DNA from: Escherichia phage EK010
Strand: one strand, 5' to 3'
Length of the DNA: 64,000 nucleotides
Sequence record: NC_070981.1
A program made the position numbers and the translations under genes. Shown here in pieces: positions 2,518 through 37,595 of this stretch; the first letter of the stretch is position 1; the number at the start of each line of letters is the position of its first letter. The notes beneath the pieces were generated by a model. That model saw only the letters and a program-made list of their open reading frames with translations, had not been told where the DNA came from and did no database searches.

Positions 2518-2536
2518 CCAATCCGTAAGACTCTCT

Positions 2537-2562
2537 AAGCGCCCTTTTGAGGCGCTTTTTTC
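2537..2562 (+). terminator. intrinsic terminator
   Basis: AAGCGCC/GGCGCTT stem, 7-nt loop, T-tract, directly after stop at 2517. Confidence 0.7.
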
Positions 2563-2766
2563 ATTTCTAAGGTGATTGTATGCCTTACTCCCTTTTAGCT
2601 CGTTGTGATGCGTTACAGGACGCTTATTATTGCTTTACAAGCCATTTCCTGTGATGTATCACGCGTGCACGTTCCTTTACCTCCTGATTTCTTTGTAGTT
2701 CCTATCCTCCCTAAAATAAATTCCTTTATAAAACAGTGAGATATAAAATAATTTGAAAAAAGGGTA

Positions 2767-2795
2767 TTGACAGGGTTTTCCTGTATAGTAATATG
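2767..2795 (+). promoter_or_regulatory. sigma70-type promoter P1 (TTGACA-16-TAATAT)
   Basis: Consensus -35 hexamer plus A-tract UP-like element upstream. Confidence 0.6.
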
Positions 2796-2922
2796 AATCC
2801 CGTAGTAAGCAGTAAGTAACAACAAGTAGTAAAAACTCCTCGATAGGTGATTAGCATCACGGTAAAAGGCTTCAACGGGGAGCGGTAGGAATACCGACAG
2901 TAAGACGCACAATGAAGTGCTA

Positions 2923-2936
2923 CGCTCTTTAAAAAT
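2923..2936 (+). promoter_or_regulatory. boxA-like antitermination motif CGCTCTTTAAAAAT
   Basis: Matches lambda nutL boxA (CGCTCTTAAAAA) and rrn boxA (GCTCTTTAACAA) consensus. Confidence 0.5.
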
Positions 2937-2970
2937 CAGGCTAGAAAGTGAAAATACTTTAAAAATAGTA

Positions 2971-2999
2971 TTGACACCGAAAACAGCCTGATTCATAAT
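2971..2999 (+). promoter_or_regulatory. sigma70-type promoter P2 (TTGACA-17-CATAAT)
   Basis: Near-consensus hexamers, A-rich upstream. Confidence 0.65.
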
Positions 3000-3032
3000 A
3001 AGCACTCAGTCAGCGATGACTTAAAATATCCC

Positions 3033-3046
3033 CGCTCTTTAAAAAT
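3033..3046 (+). promoter_or_regulatory. boxA-like motif CGCTCTTTAAAAAT
   Basis: ~30 nt downstream of P2 -10. Confidence 0.55.
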
Positions 3047-3095
3047 ATGATTTGTCTTACAGGTGGCGGCGACGTCATTACTATAAGGCGCTTAG

Positions 3096-3124: not shown

Positions 3125-3302
3125 ACGTGAAACAGGCGGACGATGAGCAACAAAATAAGCCTCATTTGTTCGATACTTTCAAATGGTCGATGCTTGAAAG
3201 CGCACTAGATTCCTAAAAGACAAATCAGACTTATCATCTTGCCCTTTCGCATAGATTCACGCGAGATAAGGGAACGGAATAAAAGAAGACGATAAAAAAG
3301 AG

Positions 3303-3330
3303 TTGACAAGGTGAAACGTTCTGATAGAAT
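3303..3330 (+). promoter_or_regulatory. sigma70-type promoter P3 (TTGACA-16-TAGAAT, TG extended -10)
   Basis: Hexamers read directly; A-rich UP-like tract upstream. Confidence 0.65.
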
Positions 3331-3353
3331 GTTCACTAAGCAGTAAGAAACAC

Positions 3354-3367
3354 CGCTCTTTAAAAAT
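3354..3367 (+). promoter_or_regulatory. boxA-like motif CGCTCTTTAAAAAT
   Basis: ~20 nt downstream of P3 -10; followed by TAAGCG-CAAC-CGCTTA hairpin. Confidence 0.55.
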
Positions 3368-3469
3368 ATGAATCAGAAAGTTAAGCGCAACCGCTTACAA
3401 TCTTGTTAATCCAATGCGTGATTAACTGGTCATTCGAAAGAATAGACGAGAAAAAGATTTAAAAAGTGG

Positions 3470-3498: not shown

Positions 3499-3587
3499 GA
3501 GCACTCACTAAGCAAATCACCGCGAAGTGAACAGCGTAACAACGGCTAACAGTTGCATAGTGTGAGAAAACACACTGATAGATTTAC

Positions 3588-3600
3588 CGCTCTTTAACAA
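3588..3600 (+). promoter_or_regulatory. boxA-like motif CGCTCTTTAACAA (rrn-type)
   Basis: 12/13 match to E. coli rrn boxA as I recall it; followed by TTTAAACA. Confidence 0.55.
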
Positions 3601-4414
3601 TTTAAACATTCTCCTATATCGGTTGAATATGCTAGATGATAATAACCATCGGATAGCATACCAGATAAAACGGTGTAAGATTCTCTAAACTATCAGAGTA
3701 AACAACCTTACAATCCCTTAACTGGAAACGTCACCACTGATAAACAGATTCATCGAGTGCACGCAAAGACTTAAGCTAATCGCCCACGGTTAAGGGTAGC
3801 GGCGGTCATCGCTAACAAGGCGCTACGGTGAAAGAAGTTAATCGGGGTAGGCAATTCCGACGAATACAAGCTCAATTGAGAGCGGCGGTGAGTGGTTAAA
3901 GAGTAGCAAATTGCTATTTAACAATAAGGTTTAGTGTGAACGTTTACGAAGTGAATGATTTGAGGCCACTATTGATGGCGTACATAATCAGTTTATGTAG
4001 TAAACCTGCTGAAAGATATAAAACGTCAATGTATCAGGCGGCTAATGACTCTTTCGCAATAACCTCCCGTAGTGGGCGATGGTTAGCGATTGAGAGTTAG
4101 TATAAAAGGATAGGCGGGAGCGAAAGCAAAGTAAACGATATTACCGACGGTTACAATAAAGTAACTAATTAGAGTCGGGCACACTGCCTTATTGTGATGA
4201 TTGATCATCGCTGGCAAATCGGCTTTGTTTATAGCGATTAGTTGAATCCACCAGATGAAACATCACGGCAAGTTAGGCGGCAAGGTTAACTCCTGATAAG
4301 ACCGCCTGATTTACCACTGGTTACTAATAGTTAGTGATTAGTGTTAAGTCATTGTGACTTGAATAGCTCATAGAGAGCGGCGCATAGTGCGTTTACAATT
4401 GAAAGGTGAATATC

Positions 4415-28707: not shown

Positions 28708-28923
28708 TTGATGGAGTTTGGAACAATGAAAAGACGTTGGGTAGTTCGTGTTCACTGGAGCAGTGGTGCAGAGTCAATGGGTATTAGAAACACCCGTCAA
28801 GAAGCTCGCGCTCATAAGAAGTTCTTGTTAAGTTGTGAAAGCACAATTAATAAGATCACTATCCACAAAGCTCAAGACTTTAAATCAGGTCGTTTCTATA
28901 TCAGCGGAAAGGTACATTACTAA
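28708..28923 (+). CDS. small protein, paralog family B (WxVxVxW ... TRQEAR ... KVHY)
   Basis: Track ORF; 4 paralogs in window. Confidence 0.5.
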   Translation: MMEFGTMKRRWVVRVHWSSGAESMGIRNTRQEARAHKKFLLSCESTINKITIHKAQDFKSGRFYISGKVHY

Positions 28924-29129
28924 TGGCTAGATTATGGGCAGTTCGCGTTAAATGGGCTAACAAAGACCTTGGTGGTGATTGTATTAAATTATTCGACACT
29001 CGACAAGAAGCTCGTCTTGCTAAGAAAGCTACAAAAGCTTTAGGTCTCGCTGAAAAAGTAGAGATTCATCGTTGGTTTCAAAATGACAATAACAGTGCAG
29101 GATCCTTGACTAGCAAGGTTCATTACTAG
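28923..29129 (+). CDS. small protein, paralog family B
   Basis: Track ORF. Confidence 0.5.
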   Translation: MARLWAVRVKWANKDLGGDCIKLFDTRQEARLAKKATKALGLAEKVEIHRWFQNDNNSAGSLTSKVHY

Positions 29130-29153: not shown

Positions 29154-29162
29154 AAATGTATA
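29154..29162 (+). promoter_or_regulatory. AAATGTATA motif (8/9 match to recurring TAATGTATA element)
   Basis: ~38 nt upstream of ATG 29200. Confidence 0.3.
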
Positions 29163-29199
29163 TACAGTATAAGAATATTGTATGAAACAGGAGAGAGTT

Positions 29200-29529
29200 A
29201 TGTTAGATTTGAGTAAAGTGGCCCCGCCATCTGAAGAGATTAGCAAAGCTAAAGTTATGCAGCAGTTCTATCATCGGGATATGCTTGGTCGTTATATCAA
29301 GAATCGTGATGTTGTTGCATGGTCTATTGGAAATCAAGGTTATCTTCTCAAAGTGTTGCAAGTTACTGGCTCAACAGCCAAGCGAGTCAAAGTCTATGAC
29401 CCTGAAATGGGGCGTTCTAAATCAGTAGACCCTCAGAATTGCATTGTTATCACACAACAGGTCATGGATAACATTGCTCGTAATGTAGCTAATTCAACTA
29501 ACTTAGAAGGGGATGCACCTAATGCATAA
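29200..29529 (+). CDS. hypothetical protein
   Basis: ATG with CAGGAGAGAG SD inside track ORF 29182-29529. Confidence 0.5.
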   Translation: MLDLSKVAPPSEEISKAKVMQQFYHRDMLGRYIKNRDVVAWSIGNQGYLLKVLQVTGSTAKRVKVYDPEMGRSKSVDPQNCIVITQQVMDNIARNVANSTNLEGDAPNA

Positions 29530-30088
29530 TAATGTCTTCGACTTACCTGAACTAACACGAGTGGGTTCTAGCAACCCATTCTCTACTACTGACTCTTCTA
29601 TTTCTCGTCTTGAGGGAATGAATAAACTGATTAGTGGTAACAGCTTAGAACACATCTTATGTGATGTGCAAGCTAACCTTGAACTTCTACACATCAAAGC
29701 AAAGAACTACCACTGGAACGTCTCTGGAGCTGGTTTCCAAGGTGTTCATGGTATGTTCGATGAACTAGAAGATTATGCTCGTGAGGCAGGCGACCGAATA
29801 GCAGAGCGTATGCGCTTCCATTGTGTTAAGGTGGATGCCACTGCCAGTAACTATTTAGGTCACGCTTGGTTCCGAGAAGGTAACGCTGATCTCGACATGG
29901 ACGGTATGCTTTCCGACATGTGCATGACTCTTATGTGTATCATTGAGAAGATGGATGAGTTTGATTCAGACTTGTGCACCTATCCAGTGGACCAGAGTAT
30001 GCTTCAAGAAATTAATGAAGGTCTTGGCAAGTTCTGTTACTTCGTCAAGAGCAACATGTCCCACTCCAGTGGTGATGTGTCTTACTAA
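29513..30088 (+). CDS. Dps-like ferritin-fold protein
   Basis: KNYHWNVSGAGFQGVHGMFDELEDYAREAGDRIAERM matches Dps ferroxidase-site region. Confidence 0.7.
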   Translation: MHLMHNNVFDLPELTRVGSSNPFSTTDSSISRLEGMNKLISGNSLEHILCDVQANLELLHIKAKNYHWNVSGAGFQGVHGMFDELEDYAREAGDRIAERMRFHCVKVDATASNYLGHAWFREGNADLDMDGMLSDMCMTLMCIIEKMDEFDSDLCTYPVDQSMLQEINEGLGKFCYFVKSNMSHSSGDVSY

Positions 30089-30152
30089 TCAAACCTCCGC
30101 CCTGTCTCGTTTGTTCAAGAGGTGGGGCGAACTTTTTTATAAGGATGTGAAT

Positions 30153-30332
30153 ATGTTTTCAGCAATCGTATGGTCTGTGTGGGCAATTCTTGTTGGCGGT
30201 ATCGTTTATCTGGCTCAGAAGCAGATGCTTAAAGAGAATCCGAATGATGCTAAAGCCATTAAACATGGCAGCATTGCTCTGGTAGTCTTCTCTGTTGTTA
30301 TTCCTTTCCTTCTTCACCTATGGACTGCATAA
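30153..30332 (+). CDS. small membrane protein (2 TM)
   Basis: ATG with AAGGA SD inside track ORF 29943-30332. Confidence 0.45.
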   Translation: MFSAIVWSVWAILVGGIVYLAQKQMLKENPNDAKAIKHGSIALVVFSVVIPFLLHLWTA

Positions 30333-30508
30333 TGAAATTAAACCTCCCTGAAGAGCTACAAGCACATGCTATTATTGTTAGTGGCTGTGTAATGGGTCTT
30401 GGTCAGACGAAGAAGATTGCCCATGATTTAGCAAAAGGGCAGTATAAATCTTTTATTGTTGTTCCTGCTACCCAACGTCATATCAATCTGTTTATTAACA
30501 AGGAATAG
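30332..30508 (+). CDS. hypothetical small protein
   Basis: TAATG overlap with upstream stop; track ORF 30320-30508. Confidence 0.4.
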   Translation: MKLNLPEELQAHAIIVSGCVMGLGQTKKIAHDLAKGQYKSFIVVPATQRHINLFINKE

Positions 30509-30509
30509 A

Positions 30510-30785
30510 ATGAGTAAAGTGATTAAGTTTTATAGTAACTCCTGTGCTCCGTGTGCAGCTATGGCTCCTGTGTTTAAGAAGGTTGTGGCTGACTATAACG
30601 TTGAAGTTGAAGAGGTAAACATCTCTGAAGGTGATGGTCGAGAGCGGGCCATTGAGTATGGTGTTCGCAGTATCCCAGCCTTCATAGTCCCTGATAATAA
30701 CAGTGGTGCTCACTATAGTTTGTCAGGTATGCAAACTGAATCTAATCTCCGTGCATTTTTAGACACGGCTCTGAAAGGTAAGTAA
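30510..30785 (+). CDS. thioredoxin-like protein (CxxC active site)
   Basis: FYSNSCAPCAAMAPVF; ATG with AAGGAA SD inside track ORF 30456-30785. Confidence 0.7.
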   Translation: MSKVIKFYSNSCAPCAAMAPVFKKVVADYNVEVEEVNISEGDGRERAIEYGVRSIPAFIVPDNNSGAHYSLSGMQTESNLRAFLDTALKGK

Positions 30786-30786
30786 T

Positions 30787-30999
30787 ATGTCCGAATGTAA
30801 ATGGGCTTTACAAGTAAATTGGGGTGGTAATAGAAGTGACATTGCCGCCACTATCTCGTTACAACGAACCCGTGAAGCTGCTCGTACACTTCGTCGTATG
30901 TTTATCAGTGGTGGTCAGAAACCATGTGATGTTAAAATCTACAAAGTTAAACATACCAACGGTGTTATGCAAATTGACACCAACGTAAATTATCGCTGA
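30787..30999 (+). CDS. small protein, paralog family B
   Basis: Track ORF. Confidence 0.5.
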   Translation: MSECKWALQVNWGGNRSDIAATISLQRTREAARTLRRMFISGGQKPCDVKIYKVKHTNGVMQIDTNVNYR

Positions 31000-31006
31000 G
31001 GCAGAT

Positions 31007-31222
31007 ATGGAAAAGAAACCTTGGGTTACTTTTTGGGTAGTTAAGTGGTTTAATTTTGATAGTACAATCCCTAGCTTCTCAACATACTCCACACGGAAAG
31101 AGGCTCGTCGGTTTAAGCGAGCTTTAAAAATTGCTAATACCGGTGCTTCTAAGATTACAATCCAGAAAGGGATTGAAACAGAAAGCGGAAGCAACATGGT
31201 TTATAAAAAGATTCACTATTAA
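31007..31222 (+). CDS. small protein, paralog family B
   Basis: Track ORF. Confidence 0.5.
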   Translation: MEKKPWVTFWVVKWFNFDSTIPSFSTYSTRKEARRFKRALKIANTGASKITIQKGIETESGSNMVYKKIHY

Positions 31223-35747: not shown

Positions 35748-37595
35748 GTGATGGATAACCCTGATAAGTTACCTTTCATAACGGAGATGACAGTCGCTGA
35801 TATAATCTCAAAACAAGCGAAGCATGGAGTCAACTTCAACAGAAGAAACGCTCGGTGGTTTGTTCACCTTCTCAAAGAGATTATTGTCAATATTGATAAA
35901 GAACTGATTCCTCTCCTCCCCAAAATGCGGGTGGATGGTTCAACTTATGCTAAGCCTTTTAAGAAATCAGGTGCTTTACAGAAGTGGCCTCAACTCTATT
36001 GTGATAGGGTTGGTCTTAAAAGAGAAGATATCGGTGGGGCGTTTACTTGCGTTGAGTATGTAGACTTTGACCCATCAAAAGATGCACGTATCAAAGAAGC
36101 CTTGATGGATGAAGGTTTTATACCTCCAGAGTGGAATTATTCTAAGAAACCTTGGAATACTTTTGAAATTCGTAAAGCTATGAAGAAGTATGGTACATAC
36201 TCTGCATGGTATTCTGCTTGGATTCGAGGTAACGCTAAAGAGAAACAGACAGCAGAGATGATAGATGCTGATATCCGAAGGTTTTTGGATAAGCACTTCC
36301 GTTATCACACTGTCAACTATATGAAAGCCTATGTCAGCGGTTTAGGTCTTAACCCTAACAGGAAGAAGCCTGTAACCTTTGATGAAATCAAAAAAGCTTT
36401 GGCTACATCAAACAAGTGGCCTACAGCCCCTACAAACCTTGAGGAGACTCTTGAAGAGGGGCTTGGGGGTGAGCTAGGGGGTGTAGGAAGTTTGCTTAAG
36501 AGACGCGTTGTAGCGGCTCACAGGCTAGGTTTGATTAGCGGGCTTATCGACAAGGAACGTAAAGATGGTAAGTTGTCCGCCGAAGCTAATAGCTGCGCTA
36601 CTCCGACATTTCGTTTTAAACATCGCATTGTTGTTAATATTCCTTCTCGCGGTTTGTTTGGTCACGAGTGCCGCAGTCTTTTTCAATCTGACTATTCCTC
36701 AGACGATAGTCATAACCATCCTTTCATCATTACCAACCATATCCCTGATGGGTGTTACGTACGAAAGGGTACTAACATTATCTACGAAATGGGAAAACCG
36801 GGCAAGAAAGACAAACCAATAGGTGCTTATAAATTTTATGTACCTGCTGGTCGTGAAATCTTCTTAGGTTACGATGGCTCTGGTCTTGAGCTGAGGATGC
36901 TTGCTCATTACCTTATCAAAGAATGTCGTGAGATGCTCGCTGAAGCAGAGCAGGAAAACAACCCAGCTAAGAAACGAGAAGCTGAACGCGGTCTAGCTTC
37001 TGCTGTTATGTACAGAGATATTCTTTTAGAAGGAGATATTCACTCACACAACCAAAAACTTGCTGGCCTTCCTACTCGTGATAATGCTAAAACGTTTATC
37101 TACGCATTCAACTACGGAGCTGGTGACGCTAAGTTAGGAAGCATCGTAGGTGGTGGCTCTGATGAAGGGGCTGTCATGAGGGCAAGATTCTTAGCAGAGA
37201 ATCCTTGTATTGCAATTCTTATTGAACGTATGACAGAGAAAGCACAAAGTGGATACATCTACGGTGTGGATGGACGTCGTATTACAATGAGAAGGGATGC
37301 AACTGGAAAGGTTATGGTTCATAAAGCCTTAAACACCCTCTTACAGAGCGCTGGGGCGATTGTTATGAAGTATGCAATGCTATTCCTTAATAAATGGATT
37401 GAGCGTGATGGTGTTCGTTGTGCGAAGGTTATTGACATGCATGATGAAGGCCAGTTCACTGTACATCGTGACGATGTTAACAAACTTCGTACCCTCACTG
37501 AAGAGTGTGTTCGTAAAGCAGGTGAATACCTCAAAATGGAATGTCCTCTTGCATCTGATTGTAAGATTGGGTTAAACTGGAATCACACTCACTAA
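35748..37595 (+). CDS. family-A DNA polymerase, polymerase domain
   Basis: Motif A DGSGLELRMLAHY, motif B KTFIYAFNYGAG, motif C VIDMHDEGQF. Confidence 0.9.
   Translation: MMDNPDKLPFITEMTVADIISKQAKHGVNFNRRNARWFVHLLKEIIVNIDKELIPLLPKMRVDGSTYAKPFKKSGALQKWPQLYCDRVGLKREDIGGAFTCVEYVDFDPSKDARIKEALMDEGFIPPEWNYSKKPWNTFEIRKAMKKYGTYSAWYSAWIRGNAKEKQTAEMIDADIRRFLDKHFRYHTVNYMKAYVSGLGLNPNRKKPVTFDEIKKALATSNKWPTAPTNLEETLEEGLGGELGGVGSLLKRRVVAAHRLGLISGLIDKERKDGKLSAEANSCATPTFRFKHRIVVNIPSRGLFGHECRSLFQSDYSSDDSHNHPFIITNHIPDGCYVRKGTNIIYEMGKPGKKDKPIGAYKFYVPAGREIFLGYDGSGLELRMLAHYLIKECREMLAEAEQENNPAKKREAERGLASAVMYRDILLEGDIHSHNQKLAGLPTRDNAKTFIYAFNYGAGDAKLGSIVGGGSDEGAVMRARFLAENPCIAILIERMTEKAQSGYIYGVDGRRITMRRDATGKVMVHKALNTLLQSAGAIVMKYAMLFLNKWIERDGVRCAKVIDMHDEGQFTVHRDDVNKLRTLTEECVRKAGEYLKMECPLASDCKIGLNWNHTH

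Follow-up and report, generated by a model that had tools for sequence, protein, structure and literature searches.

We analyze a 64,000-nucleotide stretch of DNA from Escherichia phage EK010 (NC_070981.1; hereafter, “the window”), in which an open reading frame (ORF) at 29522-30088 on the plus strand encodes a genuine full-length protein of the Dps family of mini-ferritins. An earlier note on this DNA had read the ORF at 29513-30088 (+), with the peptide KNYHWNVSGAGFQGVHGMFDELEDYAREAGDRIAERM, as a phage-encoded Dps next to a thioredoxin-like gene; the ORF exists and contains that peptide, and its ferroxidase pattern is intact (H64, W65, H76, D80, D91, and E95 in the numbering of the 188-amino-acid protein, used throughout). 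Dps is rare in phages overall but is a lineage hallmark of elongated-head podophages. We favor, with a probability of roughly 0.6, the reading that the protein forms a genuine Dps cage that would detoxify Fe2+ and H2O2 and so protect phage replication and the enzymes of deoxynucleoside triphosphate (dNTP) synthesis, and that it would not condense DNA.

The single phage sequence matches solved Dps chains at E ~3e-10 (phmmer), and a profile of 26 homologues (positions 27-167) spans the whole domain of such chains, with E values down to 2.8e-27; the chains aligned in this way include B. anthracis Dlp-2, S. aureus Dps, B. subtilis MrgA, M. smegmatis Dps2 (MsDps2), and others. PHROG 3636 matches residues 40-184 of the ORF (E=1e-52), and an exhaustive HMMER scan finds 8166 library proteins related to the phage Dps at E<=1e-3, typically 140-160 amino acids long. 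The match to the Pfam Ferritin family PF00210 reaches 33.4 bits (cut-off 24.5) and is confined to residues 55-102. A degenerate or truncated ferritin domain, as the short Pfam match might suggest, is ruled out by the whole-domain profile alignment to PDB chains together with the structural comparison below.

The AlphaFold2 (AF2) monomer model of the protein has a predicted local distance difference test score (pLDDT) of 81.5 overall and above 90 throughout the core. Its helices, at 26-66, 72-99, 108-113, 126-151, and 155-178 (A, B, short BC, C, and D), form the predicted four-helix bundle of a Dps, the short BC helix lying within the long loop between B and C. All of the top 50 Foldseek matches in the PDB are Dps proteins, and MsDps2 superposes on the model with a TM(target) score of 0.8-0.9 and a root-mean-square deviation of 1.2-1.3 Å over ~139 columns. 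Solved Dps proteins are 12-subunit cages with ferroxidase sites between subunits, to which one subunit contributes His/His/Asp and its two-fold partner Asp/Glu; the sites oxidize Fe2+, with H2O2 preferred, and Fe3+ is stored inside the cage. When Dlp-2, S. aureus Dps, and MsDps2 are aligned to the phage protein, its H-W...H...D...D...E residues fall on their H W...H...E/D...D...E, so that the inter-subunit ligands and the adjacent Trp of a Dps are all present in the alignment. Among the 26 homologues, down to 26% identity, H64, W65, H76, D91, and E95 never vary, and D80 hardly does. Judging by these residues, the phage Dps is probably catalytically competent. The earlier note had staked its assignment on a profile or fold comparison and on an alignment of the metal ligands, and both bear it out.

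The true start of dps is most likely ATG 29522 rather than the longer start at 29513 that the earlier note had used: a Shine-Dalgarno sequence (GAAGGGG) lies before it, ending at a distance of 9 nt, and homologues are mostly 186-191 amino acids long. Database records differ on this point, as the GenBank record of phage E20-1 begins at ATG 29522 and that of Bas87 at the equivalent of 29513. An internal start at Met33, which would yield a short Dps like that of phage Privateer, is unlikely because the GAGG before it lies only ~2 nt from the ATG.

The protein departs from textbook Dps in several respects. Cellular Dps proteins with structures (MsDps2, 2Z90; Dlp-2, 1JIG; S. aureus, 2D5K; E. coli, 1DPS) have in common with it the bundle and BC helix, the ferroxidase motif, and a full-length profile alignment. 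However, identity to them is 20-26%, and the phage protein alone has a non-basic N-terminal extension of ~40 amino acids and a conserved C-terminal tyrosine, with no lysine-rich tail. The extension, shared by the kuraviruses to which this sequence is closest, is modeled with low confidence and contains a conserved S-x-x-R-L-(E/D)-x-M motif. The protein as a whole has an isoelectric point (pI) of 4.72 (29 D+E versus 14 K+R); its first 42 residues include 3 K/R and 4 D/E, a net charge of -1, and its C-terminal tail is not basic either. By this charge count, the lysine-rich flexible N-terminal tail of E. coli-type DNA-binding Dps is not present. E. coli Dps binds DNA through that tail, and since the phage Dps is very acidic and lacks a basic tail, the label “DNA-binding protein” appears doubtful for it. 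The phage protein also has 6 Cys (C47, C101, C134, C139, C152, and C172) and 12 Met. Homologues of at least 48% identity mostly have 5-10 Cys and 11-15 Met, which sets these close relatives apart from cellular Dps, and the short Dps proteins of related phages have 0-3 Cys. Within helix C, the kuravirus clade has a conserved D-M-C-M-T-L-x-C stretch. Recent capture of a host dps gene is ruled out, as E. coli Dps gives a single-sequence match of only E 0.08 and three phage taxa share the conserved gene at 33-44% identity.

A tblastn search finds the phage Dps in 145 of 50,697 phage records. The statement of the earlier note that Dps is uncommon in phages is therefore accurate for phages at large, but within its own lineage the gene is universal: the carriers include all kuravirus-like coliphages, other elongated-head podophages (Salmonella 7-11, SE131, and pSal-SNUABM-01; Proteus Privateer; Cronobacter 009, GAP52, and A24; Aeromonas LAh and BUCT695), and a few Streptomyces and Synechococcus phages. 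The 4.5-kb region around dps is 100% identical, in reverse complement, to Escherichia phage E20-1 (OP293233; Kuravirus, Gordonclarkvirinae) and 80-95% identical to ~90 other kuraviruses, including ECBP2, SU7, and the BASEL phages Bas86-88. Orthologues of the window Dps in phiEco32 (gp67) and SU10 (CDS67) share 84% and 82% amino-acid identity with it, respectively.

The gene itself is already known, having been annotated in the type phage phiEco32 since 2008: phi32_67 (YP_001671812) is recorded as “DNA binding protein; member of the Dps family” and phi32_65 as thioredoxin. In the SU10 paper (2014, PMC4281155), the five C3-morphotype phages then sequenced all had a few middle genes in common; CDS65 (thioredoxin), CDS67 (DPS domain), and CDS68 were three of these, and CDS67 was detected by mass spectrometry (MS) with 35.8% coverage. 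The same MS data also contained CDS68, thioredoxin, DNA polymerase, PhoH, and the sigma factor (PMC4281155). The Privateer paper (2021, PMC7881722) reported Dps in CsCl-purified virions and mentioned the kuravirus homologues.

The genes and elements around dps in the window are the following:

29154..29164, +, candidate middle promoter element AAATGTATATA, found by pattern search ~45 nt upstream of gene X
29200..29529, +, gene X, 109 amino acids, phrog_10984; orthologue of phiEco32 gp68 and SU10 CDS68 (PHROG, AF2, synteny)
29522..30088, +, Dps-family mini-ferritin, 188 amino acids (profile matches, ligand alignment, AF2 model, Foldseek)
30098..30139, +, terminator-like element directly after the dps stop: an 11-bp hairpin (30098-30129), then a T-run
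30153..30332, +, 59-amino-acid protein with two hydrophobic (transmembrane-like) segments; phrog_9296; orthologue of phiEco32 gp66 (PHROG match)
30332..30508, +, 58-amino-acid ORF, phrog_19504, absent from phiEco32 at this position
30510..30785, +, short thioredoxin, 91 amino acids, with a CAPC site (PF00085, sequence reading)

In the window, dps lies inside a dNTP-synthesis/replication module with dCTP deaminase, ThyX, thioredoxin, and a T7-like DNA polymerase. phiEco32 has dps in the same slot, after gp68 (X) and before a small membrane protein and thioredoxin, with the same promoter motif upstream. The Dps proteins of other C3-morphotype podophages belong to the same family (33-44% identity) and have the same nucleotide-metabolism module and the same X partner. 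They differ in being 144-156 amino acids long, with few Cys and no kuravirus N-terminal extension, and in being followed by the anaerobic ribonucleotide reductase (RNR) gene NrdD or an ATP-cone ORF, which kuraviruses are without. Our neighborhood statistics rest on ~7 independent lineages, and the IMG/VR scan comprises 17 loci, mostly from known phages. APT65-like and metagenomic phages share a recurring order of primase/helicase, exonuclease, dCTP deaminase, X, Dps, and NrdD; in Privateer, 7-11, and LAh_8, Dps is followed by a free-standing ATP-cone ORF that shares homology with the NrdD N-terminus; and one phage group has the order DCD-X-NrdD with Dps absent. Kuraviruses contain no gene annotated as RNR. 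Across these lineages, thioredoxin is found within a few kb of Dps only in kuraviruses, Privateer, and 7-11. Because of this pattern, we take the conserved association of Dps to be with the dNTP-synthesis block and X and not with thioredoxin specifically; the adjacency of Dps and thioredoxin emphasized in the earlier note is real in this window, but the two are no dedicated pair.

The ATP-cone ORF, ~90 amino acids long, is annotated as “ribonucleotide reductase” or “Zn-ribbon ATP-cone regulator” (3898-4194 in locus L005, ~3890-4192 in L006, and 3929-4201 in L007). The slot after Dps that it holds in Privateer, 7-11, and LAh_8 is occupied in kuraviruses by the mini-protein with two transmembrane segments.

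Under the protective reading that we favor, Dps would be made early in the middle phase and, by analogy with its cellular relatives, would assemble into a 12-subunit cage, each ferroxidase site between subunits combining H64, H76, and D80 of one with D91 and E95 of its two-fold partner. Such a cage would oxidize Fe2+, with H2O2 preferred, and store Fe3+ inside, removing both Fenton reagents from the infected cell; hydroxyl-radical damage would thereby be limited, sparing replicating phage DNA and the redox-sensitive enzymes of nucleotide synthesis. We propose these beneficiaries because dps sits in a dNTP-synthesis/replication module and, in related phages, precedes the oxygen-sensitive anaerobic RNR. 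DNA condensation is not favored because the protein is strongly acidic and without a lysine-rich tail. In another system, host cells undergoing lytic infection mount an oxidative-stress response, with dps, catalase, and peroxiredoxin strongly induced. Dps-like genes of Lactobacillus myophages and of the gut phages “Gratiaviridae” and “Flandersviridae” are likewise phage-encoded, lie near DNA-metabolism genes, and have been read by other authors as iron/peroxide protection; they nonetheless belong to unrelated lineages with distant sequences and fold-level matches only, and the kuravirus Dps is not listed in that literature. Oxidative or iron protection during replication, as first proposed in the earlier note, would be a reasonable fit to the gene context.

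Several observations weigh against this explanation. The N-terminal extension and the unusual Cys/Met enrichment of the kuravirus clade are not accounted for by a protective cage. The protein scores 35.1 bits against NF006975, the NCBIfam equivalog of E. coli Dps, where the cut-off is 114, and we consider it a divergent member of the family rather than an E. coli Dps equivalog because the score is so far below that cut-off. The literature searched yielded no biochemical, genetic, or functional study of any phage Dps. Finally, Dps has been found with the purified virions of two phages, which a purely cytoplasmic role does not explain. On this last point, a dense, stable cage seems more likely to have co-purified than to have been packaged, since the SU10 preparation held non-structural proteins, the SU10 cryo-electron microscopy (cryo-EM) and MS work, based on major bands, names only gp20-24 as internal proteins, and dps lies outside the late block.

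The gene neighborhoods raise the alternative that Dps is a dedicated RNR accessory, scavenging oxygen or peroxide or handling iron for NrdD/NrdG or for the host di-iron RNR, and that it was kept after kuraviruses lost NrdD. In APT65-like and metagenomic phages, no more than ~1.8 kb separates Dps from the NrdD gene downstream of it (in APT65 itself, NrdD follows directly), and in LAh_8 Dps adjoins NrdG/NrdD; the free-standing homologue of the NrdD N-terminus after Dps in Privateer, 7-11, and LAh_8 points the same way. All of this is gene association, however; kuraviruses keep Dps though they have neither nrdD nor nrdG, and some relatives carry DCD-X-NrdD without Dps. We therefore regard a dedicated accessory role as unlikely.

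Another possibility is that Dps coats or compacts phage or host DNA, alone or through the product of gene X. The family name and the behavior of E. coli Dps encourage this idea, as does the annotation of the phage protein as “DNA binding protein” in the records. Gene X adds to it in three ways. First, its product is basic (pI 9.1), as is the family uniformly (median pI 9.4). Second, its AF2 model (pLDDT 82) is a small SH3-like beta-barrel with a C-terminal helix, whose closest structural neighbors are KOW/Tudor/PWWP barrels, some of them nucleic-acid-binding, although this resemblance is weak and none of the fold matches is significant (E >= 0.017). Third, the X stop overlaps the dps start. 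Against it stand the pI of 4.7 of Dps itself and the lack of basic character in both its N-terminal extension and its C-terminal tail, and among cellular Dps proteins, several that lack a basic tail fail to bind DNA. X is moreover found without Dps on contigs where it is directly upstream of NrdD, which argues that it is not a dedicated Dps adaptor. Given the charge of the protein, we think a DNA-coating role improbable.

A broader proposal joins elements of these readings: Dps and X, whose reading frames overlap and which both turned up in SU10 virion preparations, might form a conserved two-protein unit serving the dNTP-synthesis/replication factory (e.g., by tethering a scavenging cage to DNA or to the anaerobic RNR), or might be packaged in the elongated capsid in the manner of encapsulin cargo, with the N-terminal extension and the Cys/Met residues acting as an interaction or redox surface, possibly served by thioredoxin. 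We offer it as a speculative idea with little likelihood.

The least probable reading is that Dps is carried inside the capsid as a virion-associated protein and packaged along with the genome, like the ferritin-like cargo of HK97-fold encapsulins, where it would protect packaged DNA or enter the next cell: it is suggested by MS detection of Dps in CsCl-purified Privateer particles beside ~10 structural proteins, by the presence of both Dps and X (CDS68) in SU10 virion preparations, and by a Dps-like domain in some “prohead protease” proteins of uncultured phages, but dps is a middle gene of a nucleotide-metabolism module outside the late structural block, the SU10 preparation was not clean (DNA polymerase, thioredoxin, PhoH, and the sigma factor were present), the head-internal ejection proteins named in the SU10 cryo-EM/MS study are gp20-24, with Dps unmentioned (major gel bands only), a ~250 kDa cage could presumably not pass the portal while iron-loaded cages may co-band with phage, and the multi-domain Dps proteins that we scanned show no recognizable head-protein domain. 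These multi-domain proteins (P0043, of 777 amino acids with two Dps-like stretches, P0062, P0082, P0085, P0128, P0184, and P0185) consist of a ferritin domain and unannotated sequence only. BFVD entries A0A6J7XDU5, A0A6J7WPK9, and A0A6J7WIS1 likewise have a Dps domain fused to long unannotated regions; some BFVD proteins of this kind bear the name “prohead protease”, which may hint that Dps domains are targeted to the capsid in other phages.

Gene X has no match in Pfam or NCBIfam and no PDB sequence match, and a precomputed PF23835 tag on a few of its homologues was not reproduced in our Pfam search. A profile search for X returned 105 relatives, almost all on phage-sized contigs, and X is present in all C3-type podophage lineages examined. 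In Privateer and Aeromonas LAh_8, the gene immediately before Dps is an X homologue (36-38% identity, E 1e-16 to 1e-18), and the arrangement is the same in metagenomic contigs and in Trabzonvirus APT65. Salmonella 7-11 instead carries its homologue immediately after thioredoxin. Coordinates of X homologues are 3139-3423 in locus L005, 1879-2145 in L006, 3109-3462 in L007, and 4001-4294 in L013.

X and dps appear to be transcribed together. The element AAATGTATATA at 29154 matches tAATGTATAtA, the motif of promoters used by the phage sigma factor (gp36) in phiEco32 and SU10, and in SU10 the first of the middle genes, CDS68, was assigned an upstream promoter (PMC4281155). The same motif is found in phiEco32, 48 nt upstream of phi32_68. 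We infer that the 29154 element acts as a middle promoter, in which case the first middle transcription unit would begin with X and have dps as its second gene. The two genes overlap by 8 nt at the X stop and the dps start, so that they are probably translationally coupled. The hairpin after the dps stop has a free energy of -16.3 kcal/mol, though with a z-score of only -1.5; conservation across 7 kuraviruses extends to its stem but not to its loop, and one phage (L019) has a hairpin of different sequence in the same place. With the T-run that follows, the hairpin is a putative terminator, and X and dps look like a promoter-proximal, possibly attenuated two-gene unit.

The earlier note had described a small membrane protein and a CxxC thioredoxin following Dps. 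A thioredoxin with a CAPC site is indeed encoded 0.4 kb downstream, but two small ORFs (59 and 58 amino acids) separate it from Dps, not one. In phiEco32, the membrane protein alone stands between Dps and thioredoxin; E20-1 and its closest relatives add the 58-amino-acid ORF between the membrane protein and thioredoxin.

The thioredoxin scores 48.4 bits against PF00085 (cut-off 23.5) and, beyond this fold profile, has both further marks of the family, the CxxC site (C-A-P-C) and the cis-Pro loop (S-I-P), seen in MSKVIKFYSNSCAPC...RSIPAF. It is not a TrxA-like equivalog by TIGR01068, scoring 47.3 bits against a cut-off of 96.8 in a match that begins at profile position 18. The fold profile, CxxC site, and cis-Pro loop are shared with E. 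coli TrxA, whereas the phage protein, at 91 amino acids, is without the N-terminal beta1-alpha1, and its site is CAPC instead of WCGPC, with Ser replacing Trp before the first Cys. Thioredoxin is a separate member of the dNTP-synthesis/replication module and probably serves as a reductant for the host RNR and/or as a processivity partner of the T7-like polymerase. The phage DNA polymerase, at 35748-37595 (+), contains the polymerase domain only, and the exonuclease is a separate subunit. The solved structure nearest to it is that of T7 gp5 (E 4e-33); in addition, a weak local alignment covers T7 residues 296-361, a segment that takes in part of the thioredoxin-binding loop. The processivity role could fit this weak alignment, and a role as RNR reductant is equally possible. 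The Privateer paper also raises thioredoxin as a processivity factor (PMC7881722).

The value of the present analysis is mostly corrective: it confirms the Dps assignment, flags misannotations, questions the “DNA-binding” label, and highlights the X-Dps-RNR neighborhood as a place to seek function. In the E20-1 record (OP293233.1), as in many others, Dps is labeled “integrase” (2523-3089 of locus L002) and thioredoxin “holin” (3511-3786 of the same locus); neither protein matched any such family, and both have strong matches to Dps and thioredoxin, respectively. The “integrase” label for Dps recurs in the kuravirus records of IME267, MLP3, ES17, DE5, KBNP1711, and others. Such a label may suggest a temperate lifestyle and wrongly disqualify a strictly lytic phage from therapy. 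If its function were demonstrated, this would be the first experimentally characterized phage Dps. If the protective reading is right, virulent coliphages actively manage iron and peroxide chemistry while replicating, which would bear on phage therapy in inflamed, oxidizing, or iron-limited niches, as kuraviruses are frequent therapy candidates.

Two further features adjoin this region. Four paralogous proteins of ~65-71 amino acids (27-38% identity) are encoded on the plus strand at 28726-28923, 28923-29129, 30787-30999, and 31007-31222, flanking the X-Dps-thioredoxin block on both sides. They share the pattern M-x-x-x-W...V-x-W...TR-x-EAR...I...Y and mostly end in VHY or IHY, and one alone has a weak PHROG match (phrog_4939). 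Inserted between these small paralogues and thyX is an HNH homing-type endonuclease gene (PF13392; 31230-31697, +), which is found in E20-1 and Bas87 but is absent there in phiEco32, and which explains part of the variable coverage among kuraviruses.

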